64,000 bases of DNA from Minisyncoccota bacterium (GCA_025449695.1 JANWIW010000030.1:1990-65989), one strand, 5' to 3'; positions 3,830-64,000 are shown, counted from the first letter of the stretch. The notes: generated by a model from the letters alone, not told the origin. Translations and numbers: made by a program.

Positions 3830-4360
3830 CTATTGCGCGTTCCTGTCGCTGCGTACCGCCTGCTTCAGCGTCTCGATTTCGGTGATTAACTTTCGCACGC
3901 TCTCCTCGATACTGTCAATGGCGACGCGGGTCTTGAGGTCGCTCTGCGCTTCCTGTTCGTCTTCCTCCTGGATGCGGTCTATATCCTCGGAAAGCTCTTC
4001 CACGTCCTCGCCGATGTCCTCTACCTCCTCACCCATCCGGTCGATATCTTGGGACAACTCGCCGATGTCTTCGCCCAGATCCTCTACCTCCTCACCCAGA
4101 TCTTCAATGTTTTCCTCGACATCGGCCAAGCTCTTTGTAGCGCGGTTTACGGTCATTTGGATGAAAATGGCGAGATAGATGGCTTCCAGGGAGACCGCAG
4201 TAGTCAGGATGAGCAGGATCTGCTCGGTCGCAAGGCCGGCAAAACGCAGGGCGAAGATGCCCACGAAAAAAAGCGTGTGCAGGACGATAGATGCCGGCGA
4301 TCCGATCCATAAAGTGAGGCGCTCGGAAATATGCTCCAAAGAGGTATCGGGTCGTTCCAT
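3830..4360 (-). CDS. DUF1003-family membrane protein with acidic coiled-coil tail
   Basis: ORF 3830..4468; the likely start is MERPDTS at 4360. It has two TM segments and the motif AVSLEAIYLAIFIQ, shared with the 36550..37083 paralog (VSLEAIILAIIVLLSQNR). The C-terminus has acidic EEVEDLGEDIGEL repeats. Confidence 0.6.
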   Translation of the reverse strand: MERPDTSLEHISERLTLWIGSPASIVLHTLFFVGIFALRFAGLATEQILLILTTAVSLEAIYLAIFIQMTVNRATKSLADVEENIEDLGEEVEDLGEDIGELSQDIDRMGEEVEDIGEDVEELSEDIDRIQEEDEQEAQSDLKTRVAIDSIEESVRKLITEIETLKQAVRSDRNAQ

Positions 4361-9853: not shown

Positions 9854-11596
9854 CTAGCTCTCTCCCGCCTGTTCCCGCCACATGGCGGCGTAGAGGCCTC
9901 TTTCTCCGAGGAGTTCGGCGTGACTCCCGGACTCCACGACCCTGCCCTGTTCGAGGACATAGATTCGCCGCGCATGCTGGACCGTGGAGAGCCGGTGTGC
10001 CACGAGAATGGTGATGAGTTGCGGCCTGATCCGGGAAACCTCCCGAATAGTCGCAGTGATCTCCCGTTCCGTCAGGGAATCCAGGCTGGAGGTCGCCTCA
10101 TCGAAGATGAGGAGCTCGGGGGCGCGCAAGAGCGCCCGGGCGATCGCCAGGCGCTGGCGTTCCCCGCCGGAGACCTTAATGCCGCCTTCGCCGATCTTAG
10201 TACCGAGCCCTTCCCGCCCCCGCTCCAGGATCGGGAGCGCAGCCGCCTGGCGAAGCACGTTCAGGCACTCTTCGTCGCTCGCGTCCGGCCGGACGAAAAG
10301 GAGATTTTCCCGGATGGTGCCTGCGAAAAGCTGCGTCTCCTGCGCCACCATCCCGATTTTTTTCCTTACCTCGGAGGGATCGATTTCCCTGGCATCGATG
10401 CCATTCAGCAGAAGCTGTCCATTGGTCGGCTGATAGAGGCCTGCAATAAGTTTCAATGCCGTGGTCTTGCCGGAACCAGATGGCCCGACGAACGCGACCT
10501 CTTCGCCCGCCTCGATGCGCAGGGAGACATCGCGCAGCGCAGCTTCATCCCGCGACGCGTACGCGAAAGAAATATTGTCGAATTCAATGGACCGCAGCTG
10601 GCCAAGGAGCTTCGGTAAGTCGGGCCTCTTCTCCGCCGGCATGGTCAGGATTGCTTCAATAGCCTCACCCGACGCTTGTGCCTCCTGGAACTGCGAGGCG
10701 ACGGTACCTAACTCGGTCAGCGGTCCGAATACGAAGAACGAATAGATGAACAGGCTGAAGAACTCCCCCAGCGTGATGGCGCCGCGGAATATGAGCCATA
10801 GCATGAGGAGTAATAGGATTGATCGCATCGTATTGACCAGGCTGCCCTGGATGAAGGACAGTATTCGGACTAGTTTTATCTTCTTCAGTTCCAGGCCGAG
10901 TATCTTCTCATTTGAGGCGTTCAGCCGGCCGATCTCCTGTTCCTCCAGGCCAAGGCTTTTAACGAGCTCGACATTGCGGATCGTCTCCGTAGTGGAGCCG
11001 GCCAGATCGGCGGTTTCTTCCACGATGCTTTTCTGGGCGGCCTTGATCCCCCGGCTGATGTAGAACATGGAAAGGCCGATGATCGGGATCATCGCAAAAT
11101 AGAGCAGCCCTAAGAGCCAGTGCACGGTTATGGCGTACACGACGACGAAAAGTATGCCGACGACCGCCAGGAACACTCCGTTCACCGCGCTTGCGATGAA
11201 GATCTGGAAGTCGGTACGGGCTTTCTGGAGCTTAAGGAGGAGCTCGCCGGAACGCTGGTCCTCGAATACGGCATAGGGCAGAGAGAGGGAATGACCGATG
11301 CTCGTCGCGTAGATCCTCGCGCCGACCCGCTGGGTCACCACGTTCACGTAATAATCCTGGAAATTCTTGGCGATGCGCGAGACGAGGGCTACGCCCATGG
11401 AAGCGAGCACGAGGAGCAGCACGCCATGCAGGAAGGGACCGAAGGCAAGGCTTCCGGCGTGGCTCGCGTAGCGATCCACGATGAGGCGGAATATCTGCGG
11501 ATCGAGCAGGGAAAAGACCTGGTTCACGGACGCGAGGGCGAGCGCTAGGAAAAGGGTCTGTTTGTATTCGCGGATATAAGACCAGATGAGATGCAT
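9854..11596 (-). CDS. ABC transporter, fused permease/ATP-binding (MsbA-like exporter)
   Basis: 580 aa with six TM helices, Walker A GPSGSGKTT and signature VSGGERQRLAIARAL. Confidence 0.9.
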   Translation of the reverse strand: MHLIWSYIREYKQTLFLALALASVNQVFSLLDPQIFRLIVDRYASHAGSLAFGPFLHGVLLLVLASMGVALVSRIAKNFQDYYVNVVTQRVGARIYATSIGHSLSLPYAVFEDQRSGELLLKLQKARTDFQIFIASAVNGVFLAVVGILFVVVYAITVHWLLGLLYFAMIPIIGLSMFYISRGIKAAQKSIVEETADLAGSTTETIRNVELVKSLGLEEQEIGRLNASNEKILGLELKKIKLVRILSFIQGSLVNTMRSILLLLMLWLIFRGAITLGEFFSLFIYSFFVFGPLTELGTVASQFQEAQASGEAIEAILTMPAEKRPDLPKLLGQLRSIEFDNISFAYASRDEAALRDVSLRIEAGEEVAFVGPSGSGKTTALKLIAGLYQPTNGQLLLNGIDAREIDPSEVRKKIGMVAQETQLFAGTIRENLLFVRPDASDEECLNVLRQAAALPILERGREGLGTKIGEGGIKVSGGERQRLAIARALLRAPELLIFDEATSSLDSLTEREITATIREVSRIRPQLITILVAHRLSTVQHARRIYVLEQGRVVESGSHAELLGERGLYAAMWREQAGES

Positions 11597-12228: not shown

Positions 12229-12720
12229 TCAGTGAAGCTCGGCCATCTCCCGGATCGAATAATCAAGTACCTTATCCCCCTCCCCGAACCTGAAACTGCC
12301 CTCGAAGCGCTTGCCTTCAAAAAACAACGGCAACCAGTAACGGTCATCGGGCCACATCTCATCGTAAGGCACATCGGTACGGGCAAACCATTGCGGGCGC
12401 ATCTCCTCCGTCTCTTCCGGTTCTCCGGAAAACTCTGTCACGCGGAAGACGTGGACTTCCATATGGAACTTCTCCGGCGAATCGAAGTCCAGGACGCCAA
12501 CCTTATGCATTGTGACGGCATTGAGCCCCGATTCCTCTTTAAATTCCCGACGAGCGGTCGCCTCGATATTTTCTCCTTCCAAGACTTTCCCGCCGAAGCC
12601 ATTCCAACGGCCAGCCCCAAAGCTGCGCTTCTTGAAGCCCAGAAGAATCTTATCGCCGCGTTCCGCTAGGCAAAGAGTAGCGACCGTTTTCTCCATATCC
12701 TTCAGTGTAGCATTTACCAT
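12229..12720 (-). CDS. NUDIX hydrolase
   Basis: Nudix box GGKVLEGENIEATARREFKEESGL. Confidence 0.8.
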   Translation of the reverse strand: MVNATLKDMEKTVATLCLAERGDKILLGFKKRSFGAGRWNGFGGKVLEGENIEATARREFKEESGLNAVTMHKVGVLDFDSPEKFHMEVHVFRVTEFSGEPEETEEMRPQWFARTDVPYDEMWPDDRYWLPLFFEGKRFEGSFRFGEGDKVLDYSIREMAELH

Positions 12721-16331: not shown

Positions 16332-16713
16332 GATCCGAATAGTATACCTTTTTCCCAAGAAAAAATGAAATTGCCGGAGGGCAATTTCATCTCGAGGCAG
16401 CAATCGAAAGCTCTCTTCCAAAGACCAACCCCCTTTCGGGGGTTGGAGAGAAGCTAGATCCGCTTCTTCGAAGACTTCTTGGCAGTCTTCTTCTTCGCAG
16501 CCTTTTTCTTTGCCATTGTTTTATTTTCGTTTTTTATTTTACATTGGGTTGCCGACCACCCCAATGCGTATCAGATGCGCGAAAATAATTATTTAAAAAA
16601 TTTTTCGCGCCTCTTACCACTTCTTACCTCTAAATTATATCACGTTTCGCACGAAAAATGCCCCAGGCTGTGGATAATTCGCCGTGATGCGTAAATAGAG
16701 ACGCATAGCGGCG

Positions 16714-19444: not shown

Positions 19445-19584
19445 TCCCGCTTACAATGATGCGGTCGGATAAAGAAACCTTAAAGAGAGTTCATCTAAAG
19501 GAATGGCGACCCTCCTTCGCTCCTGTGGAGCTTCGGAAGGGTGCTCATTTTTCTAGATAAATTCTTGGAAGAATTTAAAGAAAA

Positions 19585-20470: not shown

Positions 20471-20546
20471 TGTCATTCCCGCCTCCGGGCGGGAATCCAC
20501 TCTTGCGCTGGATCCCGGGTAGCCTGACTGGGCTTCCGGGATGACA
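20471..20546. repeat. MITE/REP-like palindromic repeat copy D (TGTCATTCCCGCC ... CTTCCGGGATGACA)
   Basis: Termini plus the internal hairpin ATTCCCGCCTCCGGGCGGGAAT. Its 3' half is nearly identical to the 3' halves of copies G and H. Confidence 0.7.
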
Positions 20547-20558
20547 ATATCTTTCTGG

Positions 20559-23962: not shown

Positions 23963-24033
23963 TGGGGGATCGTCTAACGGTAGGACAGCGGCCTTTGGAG
24001 CCGTGAATCGGGGTTCGAATCCCTGTCCCCCAG
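23963..24033 (+). tRNA. tRNA-Gln (anticodon UUG)
   Basis: Folded by hand: acceptor UGGGGGA/UCCCCCA, D-arm GUCU-AACGGUA-GGAC, anticodon arm GCGGC-CUUUGGA-GCCGU (anticodon UUG), T-arm CGGGG-UUCGAAU-CCCUG, discriminator G. No encoded CCA. Confidence 0.8.
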
Positions 24034-24184
24034 CATTAGCTGTTGGCTTAGCGAGTACCCGAGCTTAGCAACCCTTATGCCCCGCCGAAGCTCGTCGGAG
24101 CGAAGGAGGGCCACCTTGAGCATAGTTCTGGGCGTCCGAGGAGGGTTGAAAGGTCCGATGTAATATATAATTAAGTTACTAGCT

Positions 24185-24562
24185 ATGGGAACATTTATCG
24201 AAACGAACGACACTCTGCAAATTACAAAAGAGCAAGGGTTCCCTGCCGAACTCGATTTGGATACTCACCTTAAAAATCCTTTCACGGTAAAAGATTTTGA
24301 AGGGAAAATCTTCGCTTTCAAAGACAAGCCCAATATAAGAGTTTATCAGCAACCGCCGGTCAGAAACTTTTTAGTAGAAAATAGAAATGACAAGTGGATA
24401 TATTGGGGCTTGATTCACATGTTGGAAGTTAACCATGACTATGGGGAAAAGGTGACTAGCGGCAAGTTTCGCATAATTTATATAAATACCCCAGAGGAAA
24501 TGAAAGTGGCGCATAGAATCACCGATCGACGTCCTGAAGCAGATTTCTTTGGGCATGACTAA
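24185..24562 (+). CDS. hypothetical protein (island)
   Basis: 125 aa in low-GC (about 40%) sequence immediately downstream of the tRNA. Confidence 0.55.
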   Translation: MGTFIETNDTLQITKEQGFPAELDLDTHLKNPFTVKDFEGKIFAFKDKPNIRVYQQPPVRNFLVENRNDKWIYWGLIHMLEVNHDYGEKVTSGKFRIIYINTPEEMKVAHRITDRRPEADFFGHD

Positions 24563-24580
24563 AGAGAAAAATGATCTGTT

Positions 24581-25255
24581 ATGCCAACAAACTTTTACGA
24601 TAGCGATGACTTTAAAAATATCGACTTCAAACCCTTAAATCCGTTGTATTATCCGACGGAGTACCAGCGCTACATCAAAGAAGAGACCGACCTCATTAAG
24701 CAACACATCAACGGCAAAACAGCACTTGAGGCTGGGGTCGGTATCGGCAGATTGATTCCCGATCTTGCCCCTATCGCAAAAGAGTTCGTCGGCATAGACA
24801 ACGCCGATCTCATGCTCCAGAATTCTAAAGAGCGAGCGGAAGGCTTCTCAAACGTCCGCCTTGTGAAAGGCGATCTTGAGAATCTTTCACACTTATTCCC
24901 GTCTAAATATTTCGATGTCAGCCTCTGTGTCTGGAATACTCTCGGCAACGTGAAAGATGAAGTCGTTGTGCTATCCGAACTCGCCAAAGTTACCAAGGAA
25001 AGAATTCTGGTTTCGGTACATCTAAAAGGCGCCTTAGAACAGAGGAAGAATTGGTATAAAACAGTTGGCCTTTCCATGGATGGAGTGGATGAGAAAAACG
25101 AGATTTTCTACAACACTAAGTCGGGACTCCGGTCGAAGGCGTATAGCCTTGAGGAGATCGAAGCTATTTCTAAAAACGCAGGGCTGGTCGTTGCAGATCA
25201 CAAGATCTTGGCTGGCGTTGTTCTTTGGGTTGAAATTGAAAGCTTGCCCAAGTGA
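24581..25255 (+). CDS. class I SAM-dependent methyltransferase
   Basis: Motif I LEAGVGIGRL and motif post-I/II; 224 aa. Confidence 0.75.
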   Translation: MPTNFYDSDDFKNIDFKPLNPLYYPTEYQRYIKEETDLIKQHINGKTALEAGVGIGRLIPDLAPIAKEFVGIDNADLMLQNSKERAEGFSNVRLVKGDLENLSHLFPSKYFDVSLCVWNTLGNVKDEVVVLSELAKVTKERILVSVHLKGALEQRKNWYKTVGLSMDGVDEKNEIFYNTKSGLRSKAYSLEEIEAISKNAGLVVADHKILAGVVLWVEIESLPK

Positions 25256-25328
25256 AACATGAGAACGAGCTATACTTATCCTATGAAGAAAAGAGTAAAA
25301 ACCCTCCGGCGACTCACTAAAATGACCC

Positions 25329-25399
25329 GTCCGAGGAGCCTCTTTCTGGTAAGATGAACTAACCCTCTGGGAGCCTTGCGGGGTAAGGGTTTTCAGAAG
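25329..25399 (+). promoter_or_regulatory. conserved 5' leader element, copy 1 (upstream of the SDR gene)
   Basis: GTCCGAGGAGCCTCTTTCTGGTAAG...CTCTGGGAGCCTTGCGGGGTAAGGGTTTTCAGAAG. A 70-nt paralogous element lies upstream of the AKR gene at 26949..27019 and shows covariation in a small hairpin (CTCTGGGAG vs CTTCGGGAG). Confidence 0.4.
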
Positions 25400-25448
25400 T
25401 ACGAGACCGGGAAGGCCAGCAGCAGCGAGATGGAGTAGAATCATATAT

Positions 25449-26135
25449 ATGAACTTGGAAAACAAGGTTGTTGTTATAACGGGAGGCAGCGAGGGTTTCG
25501 GTAAATCTCTCGCGAGAATGTTTTCCCACGAAAAATCCCGCCTAATAATTGCGGGCCATGAGCAGGCTAAGCTGGAGGATGCAGCAAAAGAGTTGGGAGC
25601 AGATTATCTACTGATTGACGTTACCCGTCCACAAGAGCTCAATAATTTGGCGGCATACGTTTCTGAAAAATATGGAACGATAGATATTTGGATAAACAAT
25701 GCCGGGATTCAGATTGCGCCCAGCATGGTGGAAAACGTAGATATTGAAAAACTACACCACTTATTCGAGGTTAATTTTTTCGGCTATTTTTACGGCTGTC
25801 AAAGCGCAATTCGGTGCATGAAAAAGCAGTCTCACGGATTAATAGTCAACGTGAACTCCACCGCAGGACTTGATGGCAAATCTGGACTTTCCGCTTATTC
25901 TTCTTCGAAATTCGCAACTAAGGGATTGACCGAATCTCTGCGGAAAGAGGTCGTCGATACACACATTCAAGTCTTTGCTGTATATCCCGGAGGAATGCAG
26001 ACGAACATCTACAAAGAAAAGTATCCGGACGACCTGAAAAACTATATGCTAACGGATGATGTTGCGAAAAAGGTGGTAGATAATCTCAAGATAGATCATC
26101 CCGAAAAGGACCTTATCCTTAAGCGGTCGGCGTGA
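25449..26135 (+). CDS. SDR-family oxidoreductase
   Basis: TGGSEGFGKSLA Rossmann motif and the YxxxK catalytic site (YSSSKFATKGL). Confidence 0.85.
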   Translation: MNLENKVVVITGGSEGFGKSLARMFSHEKSRLIIAGHEQAKLEDAAKELGADYLLIDVTRPQELNNLAAYVSEKYGTIDIWINNAGIQIAPSMVENVDIEKLHHLFEVNFFGYFYGCQSAIRCMKKQSHGLIVNVNSTAGLDGKSGLSAYSSSKFATKGLTESLRKEVVDTHIQVFAVYPGGMQTNIYKEKYPDDLKNYMLTDDVAKKVVDNLKIDHPEKDLILKRSA

Positions 26136-26165
26136 ATAAGGTTGGGCTAGATCCAAGAATCGTTC

Positions 26166-26300
26166 CGGTCACGTCCCACCTGCCCAGTCGATTACAGAAT
26201 CTAACCCGCTTTGCGGGTAGGATTCTGTTGAGTCCTGCGCTGCGCCCTTCGAAGCTTTACGATACCCCGCGAAGCTCGAAGAGCAAAGTGGGGCTACCTT
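26166..26300. repeat. island intergenic repeat, family X, copy 1 (contains the TCCCACCTGCCCAG motif and a strong hairpin at 26194..26228)
   Basis: About 85% identical over about 100 nt to 27920..28030. The hairpin is ACAGAATCTAACCCGC-TTTG-GCGGGTAGGATTCTGT. It sits between convergent genes, so it likely acts as a terminator. Confidence 0.6.
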
Positions 26301-26340
26301 GTGCATAGTATCGAGTGACCGAGACGCGTCAGTTCTCCCC

Positions 26341-26832
26341 TCAGCCCCGCCGCGCCGCCTCAATAGCAGCAACGTCGATTTTTGTCATTGTCATCATCGC
26401 TTCAAAGGCACGCTTTGCTTCTGCGCCGCCAACCGCAAGTGCGTCGATCAGCGTACGCGGCGTGATCTGCCATGATACTCCCCAGCGGTCTTTGCACCAG
26501 CCACATTGGCTTTCCTGACCTCCATTCCCGACGATCGCGTTCCAATAGCGATCTGTTTCTTCCTGATTGTCCGTCGCGATCTGAAAGGAAAATGCCTCAC
26601 TTTGTTTGAACGCTGGTCCACCGTTCAGACCAATACAAGGGATTCCAAAGACCGTGAACTCTACCGTGAGCACGTCGCCTTCCTTGCCATCCGGAAAATC
26701 ACTGGGCGCATGATTAACAGCCGTTACTTTACTATCGGGAAAAGTAGCGGCGTAAAAGTTTGCTGCGTTTTCTGCATCCTTGTCGAACCAGAGGCAAATT
26801 GTATTTTTTGGTTGCATGTTATTTTGTATCAT
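26341..26832 (-). CDS. VOC-family protein (PhnB/YjdN-like glyoxalase fold)
   Basis: N-terminal ICLWFDKDAENAANFYAATFPDSKV is typical of PhnB-like VOC proteins. Confidence 0.75.
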   Translation of the reverse strand: MIQNNMQPKNTICLWFDKDAENAANFYAATFPDSKVTAVNHAPSDFPDGKEGDVLTVEFTVFGIPCIGLNGGPAFKQSEAFSFQIATDNQEETDRYWNAIVGNGGQESQCGWCKDRWGVSWQITPRTLIDALAVGGAEAKRAFEAMMTMTKIDVAAIEAARRG

Positions 26833-26948
26833 TATTTTACCGCGCTTCGGGAGATTTGCAAACTAAGTAAAAGTATCTCATTGATCCCCGGCCGGGACGG
26901 GTCAACTCTCCCCTGCCGGTAGCGAGAGTATACCGCCATTTAGCATCC

Positions 26949-27019
26949 GTCCGAGGAACCTAGTTCTGGTAAACTTACAGAATCCTTCGGGAGACTTACG
27001 GGGTAATGATTTTACAAAA
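26949..27019 (+). promoter_or_regulatory. conserved 5' leader element, copy 2 (upstream of the aldo/keto reductase gene)
   Basis: GTCCGAGGAACCTAGTTCTGGTAAAC...CTTCGGGAGACTTACGGGGTAATGATTTTACAAAA. See copy 1. Confidence 0.4.
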
Positions 27020-27049
27020 TCCGCGATCGAGAAAGCCACCACTATAACC

Positions 27050-27913
27050 ATGAACCAGAAGATTCTAAAAAGCGGATTCTATCTTCCTGAAATTGGCTTA
27101 GGAACCGGAGGTGATCCCTCAAAAGCTGTCGGTTATGAAGAGCGGAAAAAAGCGCTTCAGATCGCACTTGATATGGGATACCGGCATATTGATTGCGCAG
27201 CGACATACTCCAATGGAGGGGTAGAAAAGTTCGTTGGGGAGGCCATTAAGCGCATTGATCGTTCGGAATTAATCCTTTCAACAAAAGTTTCTCCGCTCAA
27301 TCTTGCTTATGATGACCTAATTGAATCAGTGCAATTAAGCTTGGGTCGTTTAGGAGCAAGTTACGTCGATTTGTTGTACATCCATGCTCCTAATATGGAT
27401 ATTCCCTTATCCGAAACCATGCGAGCTATGGATACCGTGATAGATAATGGGATGGCAAAGCACCTGGCCGTGAGTAATTTCAACGTCGACCTTCTCATCA
27501 AAGCACAGTCGTTTACCAAGAATAAAATTGTCGCGAATCAGATCGAGTATAATCTTGCGACTCGTGAAAAAAGTCATTGCGAGGGGTGTGACAGTATGGA
27601 ATCGAAAATAATTCCATTCTGCCAGGAAAATGACATTCTCGTGGTCGCGTATCGACCCGTTGATCGAGGCTCTATCCTTGAACCCAACCAATTACTCGAT
27701 ACCTTGTCAAAAAAGTATGGGAAAACGAGAGCACAAATCGCCTTGAATTGGCTGATTTCACAAGACAACATCGTTACCATTCCACGCTCGGATGCATTCG
27801 CCCATCTTAGGGAAAACCTTGACGCAAGTGGTTGGTATTTAGACAAAGCAGACGTCGAACTCCTTAGAAGGGAGTATCCGCTTAGAGAGATTAAGTCCTA
27901 CCGTTATTATTAA
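27050..27913 (+). CDS. aldo/keto reductase
   Basis: 287 aa with the AKR signatures (DCAATYSNGG..., LYIHAPN) in a TIM-barrel. Confidence 0.85.
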   Translation: MNQKILKSGFYLPEIGLGTGGDPSKAVGYEERKKALQIALDMGYRHIDCAATYSNGGVEKFVGEAIKRIDRSELILSTKVSPLNLAYDDLIESVQLSLGRLGASYVDLLYIHAPNMDIPLSETMRAMDTVIDNGMAKHLAVSNFNVDLLIKAQSFTKNKIVANQIEYNLATREKSHCEGCDSMESKIIPFCQENDILVVAYRPVDRGSILEPNQLLDTLSKKYGKTRAQIALNWLISQDNIVTIPRSDAFAHLRENLDASGWYLDKADVELLRREYPLREIKSYRYY

Positions 27914-27919
27914 GCTCAC

Positions 27920-28060
27920 GAATCGCGTCCCACCTGCTCAGCCGATTACAGAATCTTACCCGCACAGCGGATTAGATTCTGTTGAGTCCTGCGCTGCGCC
28001 CTTCGAAGCTTTACGGCGTCCAGCGTAGCTTGAGCGGAATTGAAGCGAAGAAGGGAAGCC
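27920..28060. repeat. island intergenic repeat, family X, copy 2
   Basis: GCGTCCCACCTGCTCAGCCGATTACAGAATCTTACCCGC...GATTCTGTTGAGTCCTGCGCTGCGCCCTTCGAAGCTTTACG, nearly identical to copy 1. Confidence 0.6.
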
Positions 28061-28086
28061 TTGGCGAAGTGGGTCAGCAAAGAGAA

Positions 28087-28674
28087 TTAGCTGATCCCAA
28101 CGAGATAATATCTCCTTGTTCCCTCATTGGTCACCTGAACAGTAAATCCCTGTTCTGAAAATAGTCTCGATAAATTATCTGGGGAATAAAATACACTTCC
28201 CATTTTTAGGAACTTTTCCATGCGGACTATCACCCTCCCTCCAAAAGTTAAAGGGTTAAATTCCTCTACAATTACTGCACCTCCATACTTCAGAACCCTC
28301 TTGATTTCCTGAGCACATTGAACTTGATTCGGCAAATGATGGAACACATCTACCATAATAATTTTATCTATTGAGTTGTCGGCAAAAGGTAACTTTTCGG
28401 CAGTTCCGATCAGGCAGGCAATTCCATTGTGCTTGCGGCATTGCTCGATCATTTTCTCTGATGGATCGACCACCGTAACTTTCTTTACCTTCCCTGTTAA
28501 AAACTTGGCTACTCTGCCCGTACCGCCTCCTACATCAACAACTTCATCTTCAACGCTAAACTCTACGACAGAAGTAAGTTTCCTAAAAGTAGCTTTTGCT
28601 CCGATATGAACCTTCTCATATATCGGCGCAAGAACGTCAAAATAGTTGGGCACACCCCTAATGATATACTTCAA
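28087..28674 (-). CDS. class I SAM-dependent methyltransferase
   Basis: Motif I VVDVGGGTGRVAKFL and Methyltransf_11-like DVFHHL. Confidence 0.75.
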   Translation of the reverse strand: MKYIIRGVPNYFDVLAPIYEKVHIGAKATFRKLTSVVEFSVEDEVVDVGGGTGRVAKFLTGKVKKVTVVDPSEKMIEQCRKHNGIACLIGTAEKLPFADNSIDKIIMVDVFHHLPNQVQCAQEIKRVLKYGGAVIVEEFNPLTFGGRVIVRMEKFLKMGSVFYSPDNLSRLFSEQGFTVQVTNEGTRRYYLVGIS

Positions 28675-28843
28675 CGATCACGGTTCCAATCGCATCCCAC
28701 CTGCCCGGCATTAGTGAAAGTAAGTCGGGTTTCCGTTCTTTTGCGGGCTCCGCAAGCAAGGATTTGAATAATAATCCTCCCCTTACGAACAGGAAGGACC
28801 TCGACCGAAGTCGAGGCCCCACATGCTTTGCCGCTGTGGATTG

Positions 28844-29929
28844 TCATGCTGCGATGAGCGCGGACGGGTTCGGGGCGGGAAGCTCCTTGCCCGTGATGAT
28901 CGCGATCTCTCCCAGCACCCTCTGGAGGTAGCCGGTTGGCAGAACGGTTTGCGCGGCGGAACCGTCCACGAGAGAGAGGCTTGTCGCGAGCAACAAGTCG
29001 CCTTGGCGCACGCCATTCAGCTTGAACGAACGTCGGCCGCCGACACTCGGGTTCTGCAGGTCAACCACGACTTCATTGAGAGCCGGCGTCGGCCGCGGCG
29101 CGTCGGCCGTGAATCGGTAGCTCGCGATAGCTCTCTCCACGTGGGTGTAGGGCTCGCGGTAACCGTACTGGTCGTGGCCGAACCACTTCTCGACTGCGTC
29201 CGCCACGAACCGCCGGACCTGCCCCTGGTTCGAGATGACGACGCGCAGCATCTCTCCGGTCTCTTTGCTTCGGAACCAGATGAGACCGCCGACCTGGGTG
29301 AAGTCCGAGGCCGAGAAGCTTCGCCTTCCATACTCGTCGTAGTCAGTACGGGTGCTGTAGACGAAATCTTTTTCGACGGGGACCCAGCCGCCGTCCGCCA
29401 CAGGTTCCGCGACGCCTTGCTCGATAGAGAAGGGGTCCTCAACAGAAAAGACGCCATTTATGAGCCGCTCCATCCAGTCCCAGTCCTGGGAGTTGTCCGC
29501 GAGGCACTTGTTGCGGCGAGCGATGAAGCTGGCAACGCCGAGCGGCGTGAAAGAGAAGATCGCCCAGAACAGGCAAAGTTCAATGGCGAAAAAGACGCGC
29601 TCCGGAGCAGGGACCCACGCCCCGCCCTCACGTTCGCCATAGCCGCGATCGCCGTAAACATAACTGCCGTTGTGAGCGAGGAAGTGAGCTTCATCGATAC
29701 CCACGAGATCGCCCCGGACACCGCGATTGGGATCGGCCAAATTGGCACGAGCTGTTTCCGCCGTGGGGTACGAAATCGGATACAGCCTCTCGTACAACAC
29801 GTCGTCGAGGCGGTAGTGAAGGATGCTCGCGCCGAGAATGCAGAGGAAAACGAGCAGGGCGAGCAGGGCGCCGTTTTGGAACATCTCACTGGCAGCCTTG
29901 GGGGAAAGAGGGATTTTGGCTTGTTTCAT
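28844..29929 (-). CDS. hypothetical membrane-anchored protein
   Basis: 361 aa with an N-terminal TM (ALLALLVFLCILGASIL) and a large extracytoplasmic domain. The antisense ORF 28823..30004 is rejected as R/D-rich GC noise. Confidence 0.6.
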   Translation of the reverse strand: MKQAKIPLSPKAASEMFQNGALLALLVFLCILGASILHYRLDDVLYERLYPISYPTAETARANLADPNRGVRGDLVGIDEAHFLAHNGSYVYGDRGYGEREGGAWVPAPERVFFAIELCLFWAIFSFTPLGVASFIARRNKCLADNSQDWDWMERLINGVFSVEDPFSIEQGVAEPVADGGWVPVEKDFVYSTRTDYDEYGRRSFSASDFTQVGGLIWFRSKETGEMLRVVISNQGQVRRFVADAVEKWFGHDQYGYREPYTHVERAIASYRFTADAPRPTPALNEVVVDLQNPSVGGRRSFKLNGVRQGDLLLATSLSLVDGSAAQTVLPTGYLQRVLGEIAIITGKELPAPNPSALIAA

Positions 29930-30205
29930 CAGTCACTCCTTTCGATTTTTGCAGCTCAGAAACCACTGGTTGAGGGAAATGGATTGTCGGAGATCTCGTG
30001 CTAATTTAACAAGTTTCCATAAAATTGTCAATGGCACGGACATTAAAATCCCCGGCGGCGCAGAGATGTTGGCTTTAGAAAGTCAATCAAGTTTGCAAAT
30101 TATTGAATCGAGGATCCTGATCGGAGTTATAGGACTGAATTTCAGAAAGCATCTCCAATAGCATCCCACCTGCCCAGCAAGTGGTTTCCGTGCCATAATT
30201 GAGTA

Positions 30206-52219: not shown

Positions 52220-52232
52220 GGAGATCGTGCCT

Positions 52233-52416
52233 GTCATCCCGGCCTTGCCGCCTTTTGGCACGGCTTCGCCAAGGGCGAGGCTTCCGTGAGAGGCGAGGCT
52301 CGCTTGAAGCAGCGCCTCCGGCGGGATACGAGACCCAAGCTTGTCATTCCGGCCTTGAGCCGGGATCCAGTATTTTCCTGGATCCCGGATAGCCCCGCTG
52401 GGCTTCCGGGATGACA
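52233..52416. repeat. MITE/REP-like repeat copy G (tandem composite of two elements)
   Basis: CTGTCATCCCGGCC...CAAGCT then TGTCATTCCGGCC...GGGCTTCCGGGATGACA. It is about 95% identical over 184 bp to copy H, which lies about 960 bp downstream. Confidence 0.85.
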
Positions 52417-52553
52417 AGGCCATTTCCAATCACGATTCAGTCATTAAGTATCTCATGGAAATTTCCTTGAAAGCGAGGAACGGGAATCCAGAGGCTCTCA
52501 AATCAAACTGCCCGACGCGAAGGCCGGGCAGCTGACTAATGCGTGGTTCGAAG

Positions 52554-53027: not shown

Positions 53028-53192
53028 TTCTGCCTCCAGAATGCCCCCTCGGGCTTTTAAGTCGTGATTGCTTTTTCTACCAAGCACACGCTTGGCTTCT
53101 CTTTGCATTATACAAATTTAGACTATATTTGTCAAACTTTAGCCTACCCTCCCGGCTTTGGCGCGCTACTTGCGTTGTAATCTGAAAGCATT

Positions 53193-53376
53193 GTCATCCC
53201 GGCCTTACCGCCTTTTGGCACGGCTTCGCCAAGGGCGAGGCTTCCGTGAGAGGCAAGGCTCTCTAGAAGCAGCGCCTCCGGCGGGATACGAGACCCAAGC
53301 TTGTCATTCAGGACTTGAGCCGGGATCCAGTATTTTCCTGGATCCCGGATAGCCCCGCTGGGCTTCCGGGATGACA
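53193..53376. repeat. MITE/REP-like repeat copy H
   Basis: Near-identical direct repeat of copy G. Confidence 0.85.
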
Positions 53377-53411
53377 AGGCTATCTCCGATCACCGTTACC
53401 TAGTTATTCTC

Positions 53412-57076: not shown

Positions 57077-57823
57077 CTATTGCACGGTCAGGGTGCGGGT
57101 GATCAATATCGCCCCGCCCTGGGTCACGCGCAGGGTGTAGATACCGCTCTGTACCGTTACCGTCCAGGGGAACGAATTGCTCGCCGTCTGCCCGAGATAA
57201 GTGACGAGGCCATTTGCGCCGACAAGCTCTATGTTTGCACTACCCATACTGCTATTGAAGGGCGACCAAAGGATCGTGTAGAAGATGCCCCTCGTCACCA
57301 CGCTCACGTCCAGGTTGTTGCTATTCAAGACCTGGATCTGAGTGACCGGTTGGACCGGGTAAGCGCTGCCGCCGCAGTGGGAAGAGTACTGTCCGGAACC
57401 ATACTGGTTGTACGGGTACTGATTGGAGGGATACTGGTCATATTGATACTGGTTGTAACCGTACCCGTAGCAGCACTGATAGCTGTACTGCTGATAAGGA
57501 TATTGGTTGTATTGGTACTGGTTGTTGTACTGGTACTGGTTATACTGCGGGCAGTTGTTGTACTGGTAATTATTATTGTTTGTGTTCGAACACTGCCAAG
57601 ACTGCGTAGAGACGCCGTTCAGGTAACAGTAAGGGGCGCTCGTGGTTTGCTGTTGACCGGGAACGACCTGCTGCAGGTAGGCCGAGTTCTGGTTCACGTA
57701 TTGGATCGTCTGATTGGCGAGCGCGACCGCCTGGACCTGAGTAGGCCCCGGAATAGTGGGGTTATTGCTTACTGCGGCGAGCAGCGAATAAGCCAATTGG
57801 AGCAAAACGGCAGCGAAGGTCAT
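57077..57823 (-). CDS. secreted protein with Q/N/Y-rich low-complexity (prion-like) region and C-terminal beta domain
   Basis: Signal peptide, then repeats NNNNYQYNNCPQYNQYQYNNQYQYNQYPYQQYSYQCCYGYGYNQYQYDQYPSNQYPYNQY, then a roughly 100-aa C-terminal domain. The region has locally lower GC. Confidence 0.7.
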   Translation of the reverse strand: MTFAAVLLQLAYSLLAAVSNNPTIPGPTQVQAVALANQTIQYVNQNSAYLQQVVPGQQQTTSAPYCYLNGVSTQSWQCSNTNNNNYQYNNCPQYNQYQYNNQYQYNQYPYQQYSYQCCYGYGYNQYQYDQYPSNQYPYNQYGSGQYSSHCGGSAYPVQPVTQIQVLNSNNLDVSVVTRGIFYTILWSPFNSSMGSANIELVGANGLVTYLGQTASNSFPWTVTVQSGIYTLRVTQGGAILITRTLTVQ

Positions 57824-57858
57824 GAATACCTAGAGCCTGCCGCAATCTCCTCAGTTTG

Positions 57859-58341
57859 TCAATGAAGTTTAGATGAAGCTCCATTCTTTCCTGAAGGACG
57901 GGCCTTTTTCAGGCTTTGTCTCCATAGCAAGAAAAGACCGATGAAGTTGAGGCCGATAAGGAGAGCGAAAGGCGTGATGGAAAAACCGTCCAGGTCCAAT
58001 ACGCGGCCGCCTATCATGAAGGGCGCTTTGGAATAGAACCAGCCATAGCTGAGGGAGCCGAAGATACCGTACCCGATGAAGAGGATCCCCAGGCAGGTCA
58101 GTATAACCCCCGTCCAATCGAAGCGACGCAGCCTGAAGCCCCAACTCCTAAAGGAGCCGGATGGTCGCGCCTTCGCGACCGGCATGGCAAGCCGGACTAC
58201 AGGCGGAGGCGCGACAGCCTGGACAGGCGGCGAGACCGGCGCGGCGTCTCCCAAACGGTACGCATCGCGGGGCGGATGATTGTATCCGCCGCCAACGAGG
58301 AGGGGTTCCGAAGGCGCGGTTTTTGCGTGATTGCTATCCAT
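57859..58341 (-). CDS. hypothetical membrane protein with Pro-rich N-terminus
   Basis: ORF runs to 58410; the start was set at MDSNHAKT. 3 TM helices. Confidence 0.5.
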   Translation of the reverse strand: MDSNHAKTAPSEPLLVGGGYNHPPRDAYRLGDAAPVSPPVQAVAPPPVVRLAMPVAKARPSGSFRSWGFRLRRFDWTGVILTCLGILFIGYGIFGSLSYGWFYSKAPFMIGGRVLDLDGFSITPFALLIGLNFIGLFLLWRQSLKKARPSGKNGASSKLH

Positions 58342-61252: not shown

Positions 61253-63088
61253 TCATAGGAACTCTTCTTTATAACATTGTTCGCAGTAAATGGCCTCCGG
61301 CGCCCCCGGCGGGTAGGTGGTCTCAAAACGGTTCGCGCACGGCGCATCCCCGTGAGAATGCGTAACAGTGTTCACGTAGGCATCTCCGCCGTTCTTTCCC
61401 CGGCACATGCAAGCTCGGGAATAGAGCCGGAACTCGTTTACCCATTGCAGCCGCTCGCGGTGCCGGCAGTTCGGGCAAAGCCGCGGCAGGGCGATGTGCA
61501 TGGTCCGGTAGAACTGCAGCTCTTCAGGGGTTATGCGGAAAGCGGTCGTGCATTCGTGGTCGCAGGTCCCTTTCCCCTTCGTCCCAACTTCGCTCAAACT
61601 GCGATGGGCACGCAAGGCCTCGGGAGACGCGGCGTGGGCGCAGCCGATCACCTGGTCCACGATGGAGTTCTCGACGTCCGCGATGTGGTCGGGCAGGTCT
61701 CCGGGATGCATGGAGATCTCATAAGCTCTATCCGGCGGATCGCGCCATGCCAGGCCTTCGGCGAGGACTTGTTCCCTTGTCTTCGGGTACCACTTAAGGG
61801 CGATAGTCTCGTTGTAGGCGTATGCGGATAGTTCCATAGGAAAGAACTCGCCGAACCCGTAGGTCCGGCCTTTCTTGTCCACGTACGGCATCTCGCCCAT
61901 GTGGGCCACGATCTTCTCCCGCAAGGCGTGGTACTCCTTCTCGGAATACTGCTTGTTCAGGATACAGTGCTTCTTGTTGCGAATGGTGATGCAACCGAAT
62001 AGGTTTACCGAGTTAGGGGAGAAATCGCAGTACATGATGTCCCTGGATCCCCGGCTGCCCGCCGTAAAAGCGCACCGCTGGGCCTGGGTGACCCCATAGA
62101 CCTCATAGAGCAGCTCGGAGGTGTCGCCGCCGCCTGTTACGTCATAACTGTCCTTAAGATTCAGTCCTCCAACATAGATGTACTTGCAGTTCTGCACGCC
62201 GTCCAGAGTGGAAAAGCACATCTGGCAGTCCTTGGTGGAGCGTATGACATCCCCTTTCACGTTCTGGCTGTTCAGGACATGGGCGTAGCGCCGGGGCGTG
62301 GCCAGGCAAAGGGAGCGGAACTTCTCCTTGGCCTCTTCCAGGCGCTTGTAGCTGCCCAAGTCCCAATAGGCCATCTCCTTGGCATACTCTTCTTTGGAGA
62401 GCTGTTCGTTGAACAGGCGGTATTTCTGTTTGCGCATGTTCACGCAACCGAAGCAATCCGAACACCCGACGCAATTGAAGAGGAACGACGAATCCAGACA
62501 GTCGTCCGAGAAATAGGCGTAACGCGTGCGGTATAGCCGGTCGGAGTGGACGGCCTCGTAGGCATGGTCGGAATTGTCGGTCACATAAGCGTCGAAGGAA
62601 TGCCGCGAGAAGAGCAGCGCGTCCGCGTATTGGGAGTCCTCCGAAAAGTAGCTCCAGAAGGTCAGGTAGCAGTTCTTGCAACTGCGGCATGCATGGGTGA
62701 ACTCGCTGTTCACGCAGTTGATACTCGTAAGGCCCGGCCGCGGCACCGCCTCCATGAGGTCGCGGTACTGCGCGAAAAAAGGACGGGAGAAATCGTAGTC
62801 CCGGCCGTAGTCCAGGGCATCCCACTTGTCCGACCACCAGCACTCGCGGCAATAGACCGTGAACGGCCCGCCTGGCGCGTGGATGCTGATCATGGACCGG
62901 CCGCACAGCCTGCAGGTGTCCCGGTAGAGGGTACGGTCCTCCCGCCAGGCCGAACGGCGCATGTCCCGGCAGGGCGGGCACCAGGTCGGGGCAGGCACGC
63001 CGATACTCTTATAGAACCCGATATCGGCGGGTTCGATCGTGAAGTCTTGCCCGCAGTTCGCGCATGTCCGCGTCCCGGTCTCCGTCAT
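61253..63088 (-). CDS. Cys-rich multi-zinc-ribbon protein paralog
   Basis: The start was set at MTETGTRTCANCGQDFTIEPADIGFYKSIGVPAPTWCPPCR. It has the same architecture and internal repeats (..NEQLSKEEYAKE / ..LNKQYSEKEYHAL, NCVGCSDCFGC) as 392..2197. Antisense ORFs 62154..62981 and 62546..63451 are rejected. Confidence 0.7.
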   Translation of the reverse strand: MTETGTRTCANCGQDFTIEPADIGFYKSIGVPAPTWCPPCRDMRRSAWREDRTLYRDTCRLCGRSMISIHAPGGPFTVYCRECWWSDKWDALDYGRDYDFSRPFFAQYRDLMEAVPRPGLTSINCVNSEFTHACRSCKNCYLTFWSYFSEDSQYADALLFSRHSFDAYVTDNSDHAYEAVHSDRLYRTRYAYFSDDCLDSSFLFNCVGCSDCFGCVNMRKQKYRLFNEQLSKEEYAKEMAYWDLGSYKRLEEAKEKFRSLCLATPRRYAHVLNSQNVKGDVIRSTKDCQMCFSTLDGVQNCKYIYVGGLNLKDSYDVTGGGDTSELLYEVYGVTQAQRCAFTAGSRGSRDIMYCDFSPNSVNLFGCITIRNKKHCILNKQYSEKEYHALREKIVAHMGEMPYVDKKGRTYGFGEFFPMELSAYAYNETIALKWYPKTREQVLAEGLAWRDPPDRAYEISMHPGDLPDHIADVENSIVDQVIGCAHAASPEALRAHRSLSEVGTKGKGTCDHECTTAFRITPEELQFYRTMHIALPRLCPNCRHRERLQWVNEFRLYSRACMCRGKNGGDAYVNTVTHSHGDAPCANRFETTYPPGAPEAIYCEQCYKEEFL

Positions 63089-63122
63089 GGTCTGATTGTA
63101 GCAAGTTGCTATACTTTGCCCT

Positions 63123-64000
63123 ATGAAGCCCATCCAGATCATCGTCCCGGGCGGCCTCAATACCGATTTTGTCGCGCAAGGCGTGAGAAAGCTCGCCGGC
63201 AAGGGCGAGCTCGTGACCGGCAAGGAGCTGAAGATAGGTCCCGGCGGCAAATCGAGGAACGTGGCCCAGATGATCGCCACGCTCACAGGACCGGGGAAAG
63301 TGGCTATGATCGGCAGGACGACCAAGGACCCCTTCGGTCTTTATCGGGTGCCTATGGACGCCCTGAAAGACGCCGGGGTAAACACCGCATACGTGGAGGT
63401 GCTCGAGTTCACCGGCACTTTCCCCGGCATCGCCCTCATCCCCGTGGATGAGGAGGGTAACAACCAGATCTATCTTTTACCGGGCGTGAACAGCGGATTT
63501 TCCCCTGCCGGCATCGATGCAGCGGAGAAGCTCTTCCAAGCGGCGGGGAGCTCGGGCATGCTGGCCCTTTCCCTGGAATTACCGATCGAGACGGCGCTCC
63601 GTGCTATGGACCAGGCTGTGAAACACGGCCTCCGGATCATCCTTGACCCGGGCGGCATCGAGCCCGGCGCGGATCATGGACGCCTCCTTAGCAAGGATAT
63701 CTTCCTCCTCAAACCGAACGAGTACGAAGCCGAAATATTGAGCGGCGTTACCGTTACGGATCTCAAAAGCGCTGGAAAGGCGGCTTCCCTTCTCATGCAA
63801 AAAGGCCCGCAAAACGTCCTGATCACGGCCGGGGTAGATGGCGCTTATCTTTTCACGCCGGAAGCGGGACAGCACATCCCGGTCCCGGACATCGCTTCCA
63901 GCTCGGGCGAAAAAGATGAGACTGGCTGTGGCGACCAGGCCATGGCCGCCATCTGCGCCATGATCGCGGAGGGCAAAGATGTCGCGGAGGCCGCGAGGCT
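63123..64000 (+). CDS. PfkB-family sugar kinase (ribokinase-like), 3'-truncated by the window end
   Basis: Hand translation MKPIQIIVPGGLNTDFV...GPGGKSRNVAQMIATL...DETGCGDQAMAAICAM shows the PfkB signatures. It is absent from the ORF track because no stop falls in the window. Confidence 0.8.
   Translation, partial: MKPIQIIVPGGLNTDFVAQGVRKLAGKGELVTGKELKIGPGGKSRNVAQMIATLTGPGKVAMIGRTTKDPFGLYRVPMDALKDAGVNTAYVEVLEFTGTFPGIALIPVDEEGNNQIYLLPGVNSGFSPAGIDAAEKLFQAAGSSGMLALSLELPIETALRAMDQAVKHGLRIILDPGGIEPGADHGRLLSKDIFLLKPNEYEAEILSGVTVTDLKSAGKAASLLMQKGPQNVLITAGVDGAYLFTPEAGQHIPVPDIASSSGEKDETGCGDQAMAAICAMIAEGKDVAEAAR

Follow-up and report, generated by a model that had tools for sequence, protein, structure and literature searches.

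High-plasticity regions of Dehalococcoides genomes carry tandem islands that are specific for ssrA or for tRNA genes (McMurdie et al. 2009, PMC2764846). The ssrA direct repeat occurs up to 11 times 3' of ssrA, about 150 bp of flanking intergenic sequence is similar from copy to copy, and the arrangement has been read as the result of repeated integration (PMC2764846). Judged by analogy, these tandem ssrA islands are the closest described architecture to the locus reported here, which lies directly 3' of the gene for tRNA-Gln(UUG) in a 64,000-nt stretch of DNA from a Minisyncoccota bacterium (GCA_025449695.1 JANWIW010000030.1:1990-65989). We call this whole stretch the window, and coordinates are counted from its first nucleotide unless another locus is named. 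The host is a GC-rich member of the Paceibacteria/Patescibacteria, or Candidate Phyla Radiation (CPR). Six genes of foreign composition occupy about 4.7 kb after the tRNA gene, and the spacers between them consist mostly of repeat modules. On balance, we favor the interpretation that the locus is an islet without an integrase and that several small insertions at a hotspot, the 3' end of tRNA-Gln, gave rise to it.

Genomic islands of less than 10 kb are termed genomic islets, and the features by which islands are recognized include insertion at a tRNA gene, perfect or near-perfect direct repeats of 16-20 bp, integrase or other mobility genes, and absence from close strains (Juhas et al. 2009, PMC2704930). 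The locus resembles such islets in its size below 10 kb, its position at a tRNA gene, its deviant GC content and codon usage, and its accessory cargo. It is unlike such islands in that no integrase or other mobility genes were found, the flanking repeats are imperfect, and the locus is a mosaic at the scale of single open reading frames (ORFs). The resemblance to the Dehalococcoides regions lies in a small, streamlined host genome with low-GC accessory genes directly after a small RNA gene, and in short direct repeats that recur along with similar surrounding intergenic DNA. Here, these repeats comprise four copies of a motif that we call A (the third and fourth of which match at 24/26 positions) and two copies of a spacer module, X, of about 180 nt. 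However, the Dehalococcoides copies are near exact over 19-20 bp and an integrase-containing cluster adjoins ssrA, whereas in the islet the copies are degenerate, the units measure just 0.75-2.1 kb, and the ORFs tested over 64 kb include no recombinase.

A further comparison can be made with cis-mobilizable elements (CIMEs), which are integrase-less, are bounded by att-type repeats, and pile up in tandem at one site, with the recombinase supplied in trans. The islet would share with CIMEs the lack of an integrase, the presence of att-type repeats, the tandem accumulation, and a recombinase acting in trans. In contrast, CIMEs stem from the ICEs (integrative and conjugative elements) and IMEs (integrative and mobilizable elements) of Firmicutes and are larger, and no helper element is known for the islet.

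CPR genomes are tiny, and how they gain genes is little known. A search of the literature on CPR bacteria turned up no account of islands linked to tRNA genes or of cassette arrays. The locus would be a case in which redox and methylation genes were gained one by one at a tRNA hotspot with no visible integrase, and its interest lies mainly in the CPR host and in an ORF-precise mosaic with repeat-bracketed single genes. If the spacer modules are recombination sites, they would provide a concrete and testable handle on horizontal gene flow in CPR bacteria. If they are only regulatory or terminator elements, the locus is a small genomic islet of an ordinary kind.

The tRNA-Gln(UUG) gene, at 23963-24034 on the + strand, is the only tRNA gene in the whole window (ARAGORN; Rfam tRNA, 60.7 bits). 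Directly 3' of it, the GC content falls to 0.459 (24035-28710), compared with 0.582 in the remaining window. This corresponds to z ~ -8.8 against all other 4.7-kb windows, whose GC content is 0.581 +/- 0.014 with a minimum of 0.540. An initial annotation of this DNA had described such a drop and had allowed that it might vanish on quantitative analysis, but the shift is present. It extends to codon usage, because GC content at third codon positions (GC3) is 0.41-0.54 in the six islet ORFs vs ~0.6-0.8 in most other ORFs of the window. Foreign composition at the tRNA-Gln 3' end is thus borne out by GC content and codon usage alike.

The same annotation had assigned low GC to the entire stretch, which is accurate for the ORFs (mean GC 0.443, vs 0.583 +/- 0.034 for host ORFs) but not for the spacers. 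These have a mean GC of 0.522 (n=6, range 0.48-0.555), compared with 0.535 +/- 0.061 for host spacers (n=28). The foreign composition is therefore confined to the islet ORFs, and the spacers are host-like in GC. This finding bears on the simplest rival explanation, which is that a single foreign island entered in one integration at tRNA-Gln, later lost its integrase, and acquired its repeats through later local duplication of spacers. Such an event would account for a low-GC block that is contiguous and begins at the tRNA. However, host-like spacers next to ORFs whose GC3 is un-ameliorated are contrary to what is expected of one ameliorating insert, and this argues for a mosaic over a block. 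The tRNA gene, the six islet genes, and the gene that follows them are as follows.

23963-24034, + strand: tRNA-Gln(UUG), the proximal boundary and likely attachment hotspot; the fmt-tRNA-Gln synteny is kept in relatives.
24185-24562, + strand: hyp125, 125 aa, with no Pfam, NCBIfam or PDB match; GC 0.40, GC3 0.44.
24581-25255, + strand: class I S-adenosylmethionine (SAM)-dependent methyltransferase, 224 aa (Pfam Methyltransf_25/11/31); GC 0.458.
25449-26135, + strand: short-chain dehydrogenase/reductase (SDR), 228 aa (Pfam adh_short, 7e-51); GC 0.44, GC3 0.48.
26341-26832, - strand: PhnB-like protein of the VOC superfamily, 163 aa (Pfam PF06983, 2e-50); GC 0.51.
27050-27913, + strand: aldo/keto reductase (AKR), DkgB-like, 287 aa (Pfam Aldo_ket_red, 7e-51); GC 0.438.
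28087-28674, - strand: class I SAM-dependent methyltransferase, 195 aa (Pfam Methyltransf_11, 6e-24); GC 0.413, GC3 0.41.
28844-29929, - strand: g361, a membrane-anchored protein of 361 aa with host-like GC (0.61), located inside the unit between the third and fourth A copies and possibly a further unit of the array.

Pfam and NCBIfam agree with the gene content proposed earlier, and all of its entries were confirmed: a hypothetical protein (the family-less 125-aa hyp125), two class I SAM methyltransferases, an SDR, a PhnB/VOC-like protein, and an AKR. The six genes are oriented + + + - + - in order. Because the islet genes match their family models end to end, they are not pseudogenes, and all six are intact. 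The GC content of the PhnB gene is intermediate between that of the islet and that of the host. The AKR matches the NCBIfam DkgB model at 6e-37, which is under the cut-off, and the 361-aa protein matches no Pfam or NCBIfam model. With function read from family membership alone, the cargo would serve in carbonyl reduction or detoxification and in methylation, and together the genes plausibly make up a carbonyl/xenobiotic redox and methylation toolkit. As had been reported, no integrase is present among the ~50 window ORFs tested, which is also the expected outcome for a single island that has since lost this gene.

The spacers between these genes contain several recurring elements, all listed here in the + orientation.

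24035-24184, + strand: post-tRNA spacer, with a C-type hairpin at ~24078-24107, module Z, and an AT-rich -10-like box just 5' of the first gene.
24097-24154, + strand: module Z, CCACCTTGAG...CGTCCGAGGAG.
25327-25421, + strand: module Y, copy 1 (Y1), ending 27 nt 5' of the SDR start codon; a homologous element lies at 2371-2474 of L091, a locus from another GC-rich genome.
26151-26332, + strand: module X, copy 1 (X1), between the convergent SDR and PhnB genes; a profile aligns 26151-26329.
26947-27041, + strand: module Y, copy 2 (Y2), ending 8 nt 5' of the AKR start codon.
27906-28086, + strand: module X, copy 2 (X2), between the convergent AKR and methyltransferase genes.

That the spacers are built from recurring modules had been recognized from the start, and the alignments substantiate it. 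The X copies are 85% identical over 111 nt (26169-26279 / 27923-28033, E 1e-27), with a profile that aligns ~180 nt, and the Y copies are 73% identical over 95 nt (25327-25421 / 26947-27041, E 5e-13). Modules had also been said to flank the tRNA itself, and the post-tRNA spacer at 24077-24140 indeed matches the distal part of X1 at 26262-26323 (75%, E 1e-6). X1 is composed of an A motif (26162-26185, CGTCCCACCTGCCC), a hairpin (26194-26228), a conserved 33-mer (26229-26261), and C/Z-type sequence (26262-26332), and X2 contains the corresponding A motif (27916-27939), hairpin (27948-27982), and 33-mer (27983-28015). Folding of the hairpin is strong, with z = -5.05 for X1 and -3.34 for the other copy. 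Because X lies between convergent gene pairs and includes this strong hairpin, it is probably a 3'-end or terminator region. Likewise, Y is probably a promoter or leader region for the two oxidoreductase genes, because it is located directly upstream of both.

The SDR and AKR have unrelated folds, yet they carry the same 5' (Y) and 3' (X) flanks, which is difficult to reconcile with the arrival of a single island. In another rival explanation, the locus is a native variable region where X, Y, Z, and A are ordinary cis-regulatory elements or elements of the repetitive extragenic palindromic (REP) type, and where AT-rich genes entered by homologous or illegitimate recombination that was not site-specific at the tRNA. 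The location of X between convergent genes and of Y directly 5' of start codons suits this proposal, as does the retention of Z and Y beside hyp125 in L091, where there is no tRNA. The C-type hairpin (CCCTCCGTAGCTTTAGCGAAGGAGGG-like), which occurs both 5' and 3' of the tRNA and within X, is also present outside the islet at 19510, 40596, and 40677, and therefore belongs to the general repertoire of the host genome. Other hairpin repeats (family D4) exist in the window as well. On the other hand, interspersed repeats of the REP or MITE type are marked by many copies spread through the intergenic DNA of a genome, whereas X, Y, and A are seen only in the 24-30.2 kb portion of the 64-kb window and, of the islet elements, the short C-type hairpin alone recurs outside it. 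In addition, Y has little conserved RNA structure.

Several other identities for the modules were considered and rejected. Y was tried as a structured RNA or riboswitch, but its single sequences fold no better than shuffles (z +0.04 and +1.1), and the consensus fold is weak at -10.7 kcal/mol. When the window was compared with Rfam 15, the tRNA was the sole real match even at E <= 5 (the other row, mir-1910, is noise at 18.3 bits vs a 70-bit cut-off), and nothing significant was returned around the L091 elements. Gathering and E-value thresholds alike left the tRNA as the only Rfam result, and an origin of Z and Y from RNase P or another long RNA was considered and dropped. Homology between Y and X is not significant (p ~0.1). 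In scans for exact patterns, neither an X 22-mer nor a Y 26-mer had a match in the metagenome contigs, and in the viral contigs there was none to this 26-mer or to an X 20-mer of different sequence. A comparison of X, Y, and Z with all 98 retrieved loci (blastn-short, nhmmer) produced matches in L091 and L092 only.

The A motif (RTCCCACCTGCYCRG) connects these spacers to the tRNA gene. It is present in four copies, all on the + strand, at 26172, 27926, 28693, and 30162. The copies have lengths of 14-26 nt and fall within 4 kb, where ~0.6 would be expected by chance. The first two are contained in X1 and X2. The other two, together with the pair of repeats that brackets the PhnB gene, are located as follows.

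26315-26336, + strand: left copy of the PhnB bracket, CCGAGACGCGTCAGTTCTCCCC.
26891-26912, + strand: right copy of the PhnB bracket, CCGGGACGGGTCAACTCTCCCC.
28682-28715, + strand: A motif copy 3 (A3), GGTTCCAATCGCATCCCACCTGCCCGGCATTAG, situated right on the distal GC boundary and probably derived, in degenerate form, from the tRNA-Gln 3' end (T-loop motif plus CATTAG).
30154-30179, + strand: A motif copy 4 (A4), TCCAATAGCATCCCACCTGCCCAGCA, 27 nt 5' of the next gene and 92% identical over 26 nt to 28685-28710 (E 5e-4).

Under permissive scoring, A3 aligns with the GGTTCGAATCCCTGTCCCCCAGCATTAG sequence of the tRNA. Compared without gaps, 18/25 positions match. Its likeness to the tRNA 3' end ranks 2 among 12764 windows on both strands and is reached by 20 of 20000 shuffles, and A2 ranks at about 4. 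The tRNA and the distal boundary are the sole sites of the pattern GGTTCNAATCNC. Under stringent conditions, the one repeat of the tRNA 3' end that a search returned is an 11-mer, CCCGGCATTAG. Thus, where a direct repeat of the tRNA 3' end had been predicted for the distal boundary, a degenerate copy exists but a clean repeat does not. We consider A3 a probable relic of the tRNA-Gln 3' end, as suggested by the alignment. A degenerate copy at the distal boundary is also what a single island could have left behind. For a native variable region, in contrast, the likeness of an A motif to the tRNA 3' end, together with its place at the GC boundary, is an unfavorable finding.

Direct repeats also bracket individual units. 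To assess them, the 110 nt on each side of a unit were compared, and 61 other genes of the window served as background. The PhnB gene is bracketed by a direct repeat of 22 nt (18/22) that is equalled by 0/61 background genes, and this private bracket, like its differing GC, speaks against a single island. For hyp125 plus the adjacent methyltransferase, the bracket is CGTCCGAGGAG, which matches at 11/11 positions (24133 / 25328), and for the AKR it is TTACAGAATC, which matches at 10/10; each is equalled or beaten by 2/61. The best bracketing repeat in the window belongs to the unit at 28711-30153, which carries g361 (24/26, 28685-28710 / 30154-30179, 0/61). The repeat-bounded array may extend as far as 30179, and the length of the islet would increase from ~4.7 kb to ~6.1 kb with this A3-A4 unit included.

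Relatives provide a view of the locus on both sides of the tRNA. The nearest homologues of fmt are 57-63% identical, and some of the listed ones are named Candidatus Paceibacterota or Minisyncoccia. Among species-representative genomes the best fmt match is 46%, and hence there is no close relative in that set. Gene order in the relatives (L081-L084, L098) is kept as SecA-RaiA-MurB...L27-L9-CtpB-def-fmt. The gene after fmt is tRNA-Gln(UUG) in L082 and L083/L084, and in part also in L098. In L082 and L083/L084, whose fmt identity is 57-63%, however, no homologues of the window ORFs 3' of the tRNA were found past this gene. This makes the tRNA a breakpoint of synteny, at which the agreement with four relatives ends. 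Relatives with the same genes at the same locus had been named as a finding that would undermine the proposed island, and the genes are absent after tRNA-Gln in these loci. The contig of the closest relative, L098 (fmt 63%), ends in the middle of tRNA-Gln(UUG) (L098:5989-6035). Such an end is consistent with a break in the assembly due to strain variation or to repeats just 3' of the tRNA.

A broken contig also raises the question of artefact. DNA of a low-GC organism might have been joined chimerically to the host sequence at the conserved tRNA during assembly or binning, given that the contig is metagenome-assembled, that tRNA genes are common chimera points, and that L098 breaks in the same tRNA. 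We consider this very improbable. GC returns to the host level on both sides within a single contig, composition switches ORF by ORF with host-type spacers in between, one spacer module turns up again at other places in the contig, and X1 is 85% rather than 100% identical to X2.

In L082 (fmt 59%), the final 18 nt of tRNA-Gln and 17 nt of flanking sequence recur 120 nt downstream as a 35-nt direct repeat (3974-4008 / 4130-4162; 31/33 with one 2-nt gap, z ~6.6). Because this is a classic att-type duplication, tRNA-Gln is a recombination target in this lineage. A genuine duplication of this kind at the same tRNA counts against a native variable region, which we regard as unlikely. As a separate observation, the repeat (L082:3974-4162) brackets a gene-less insert of ~120 nt with hairpins and a GTCGGAGGAG box, which might be a miniature or deleted integrative element.

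Homologues of the cargo are found in diverse surroundings. The best AKR homologues have identities of 76%, 75%, and 73%, and the last of them is named Patescibacteria group bacterium. The best matches of the AKR and hyp125 (76-78%) exceed those of fmt (63% at most). In L086, the AKR homologue is located 350 nt after a tRNA-Gln(CUG), in a local low-GC patch, as the first in a run of small accessory genes. A small ABM-like gene is adjacent to the AKR homologue both there (L086:3260-4523, with the pair directly after the tRNA) and in L090 (455-1677), and the order of the two genes is reversed between the loci. In L088, which is from another Patescibacterium, the AKR homologue belongs to an array of small genes that share one orientation (DUF1905, OmdA, Ble-like, PhnB-like, DUF1428, among others), of which the PhnB-like gene is 39% identical to the islet PhnB. 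The L088 AKR homologue is bracketed by 46-nt direct repeats (9898-9943 / 10890-10935) with the core CAGGTTCTAATCTCCTTCATCAGCCGGAGC. A third copy is present 1.7 kb downstream (12555-12600), and there is no tRNA within 20 kb.

The other islet genes were not found in any homologue context examined. Because the islet genes are unlinked in other genomes, the six genes do not form a co-travelling unit. The initial annotation had suggested an old or decayed insertion, which implies one block, and this part of it does not hold up well, because the host-like spacers, the unit-wise direct repeats, and the genes unlinked elsewhere point to a mosaic. Taking these observations together with the shared flanks of the SDR and AKR, we judge a single foreign island to be unlikely.

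The alternation of spacers and genes also calls to mind integrons. Clusters of attC sites lacking integron integrases (CALINs) likewise have conserved, structured spacers that alternate with single accessory ORFs of deviant composition. If the islet were such an array with X and Y as attC sites, this would fit its conserved elements of 95-180 nt between single unrelated deviant-GC ORFs, the imperfect hairpin in X, and the small accessory-gene arrays in which homologues sit in L086 and L088. However, a pattern scan for RYYYAAC...GTTRRRY core-site pairs at a spacing of 50-150 nt returned zero, both for the islet spacers and for the window as a whole. The genes differ in orientation, promoter-like boxes precede them, and no IntI is present among the window ORFs tested. 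The hairpin of X comprises just 35 nt, and its ends are not R''/R' boxes. Unlike CALINs, the islet is also adjacent to a tRNA. Given the lack of attC pairs, the mixed orientations and promoter-like boxes, and the lack of IntI, integron membership fails, and a CALIN is hardly credible.

An undescribed cassette-type mode of gene capture in Patescibacteria would be a different matter. Under this distinctly unlikely proposal, single AT-rich ORFs would be inserted at short conserved sites by a recombinase supplied in trans. One kind of site would be the A motif (CCACCTGCCC), as a relative of the tRNA-Gln 3' end, and the other the CGTCCGAGGAG box in Z and Y, both positioned inside a repeated non-coding scaffold 3' of tRNA-Gln. 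The repeat-bracketed AKR of L088 and the Z-hyp125-Y unit of L091 would then represent further instances.

The interpretation that we favor is a horizontally acquired islet that accreted at tRNA-Gln. Small insertions would have occurred one after another at or beside an attachment site at the tRNA 3' end, and the junctions would retain degenerate copies of this site (the A motif) along with related arms (X, Y, and Z). The cargo would be AT-rich single genes of kinds that have homologues in many other Patescibacteria, and the recombinase would have been supplied in trans or since lost. Composition, gene identities, repeats and unit brackets, the break in synteny, and the att-type repeat of a relative were observed directly, and from them we infer this series of site-specific insertions.

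Several observations weigh against accretion at the tRNA. The likeness between A and the tRNA is degenerate and of only moderate significance, and it is outscored by an unrelated coding site at 59.57 kb. This top-scoring site is within a gene and looks like chance. The 10-11-nt brackets are matched or beaten by 2/61 background genes, and the GC-normalised dinucleotide signature of the islet is ordinary (delta* 0.054 vs 0.040 +/- 0.0135). No other copy of X or Y was found in the sequences searched beyond L091/L092, so that mobility of X and Y is putative. Integrase, transposase, and other mobility families were not found among the ~50 ORFs tested across the 64-kb window. The relatives compared are only 57-63% identical in fmt, and the closest contig stops inside the tRNA. 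Finally, the conservation of hyp125 is so high that its 78% identity tells little about recent transfer.

Indeed, hyp125 is a strikingly conserved, Patescibacteria-wide protein without an assignable family or fold. It has 1330 homologues. Identity is 64-78% for the best 120 listed, among which are proteins of Paceibacterota, Microgenomates, and Roizmanbacteria. In this family of 123 aa, 35 columns are invariant, and several Patescibacteria classes are represented among the same 120. An AlphaFold2 (AF2) model with a pLDDT of 84.5 gave no significant fold match. In L091, the hyp125 homologue is AT-rich (GC 0.366, vs 0.552 for this GC-rich locus) and is flanked by non-coding elements homologous to module Z (two copies) and module Y (L091:1927-2505). 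Elements of the Z/Y type are thus common to two GC-rich genomes, that of the window and that of L091, and they were not found at four low-GC hyp125 loci (L093-L097). A T-loop-like GTTCGAATCG upstream of Z in L091 was also considered, but it is explained more simply as part of a C-type hairpin and was not used as evidence.

Directly 5' of hyp125 in L091 is a gene (L091:74-1852) for a 592-aa homologue of two paralogous Cys-rich proteins encoded near the two opposite ends of the window, which have 613 and 690 aa (392-2233 and 61253-63325, both on the - strand) and whose DNA is 70% identical over 202 nt. The Cys-rich proteins have no family or structure match save a weak treble-clef zinc-finger. 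The 613- and 690-aa paralogues, considered as candidate recombinases, were rejected for lack of such a match and because their sequence resembles that of a Cys-rich repeat protein.

Other repeats of the window appear distinct from the islet modules. A 202-nt direct repeat is 96% identical between copies at 52232-52433 and 53192-53393, which are 960 nt apart. Its hairpin-rich end of 59 nt (GCCGGGATCCAG...CCGGGATGACAA) occurs again at 20489-20547, between rplI and ctpB, and the repeat makes up a small interspersed family of its own in the host. Short, degenerate tandem repeats (TACTGGTTGTA-like, with a spacing of 15-54 nt) are found at 57402-57584 within an ORF (57080-57865) that has an unusually low GC3 of 0.48 and no Pfam match. 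An AT-rich intergenic patch (16422-16713, GC 0.44) is located between raiA and murB. On the minus strand of this patch, at ~16458-16520, reading by eye suggests a putative tiny Lys-rich ORF (MAKKKAAKKKTAKKSSKKRI).

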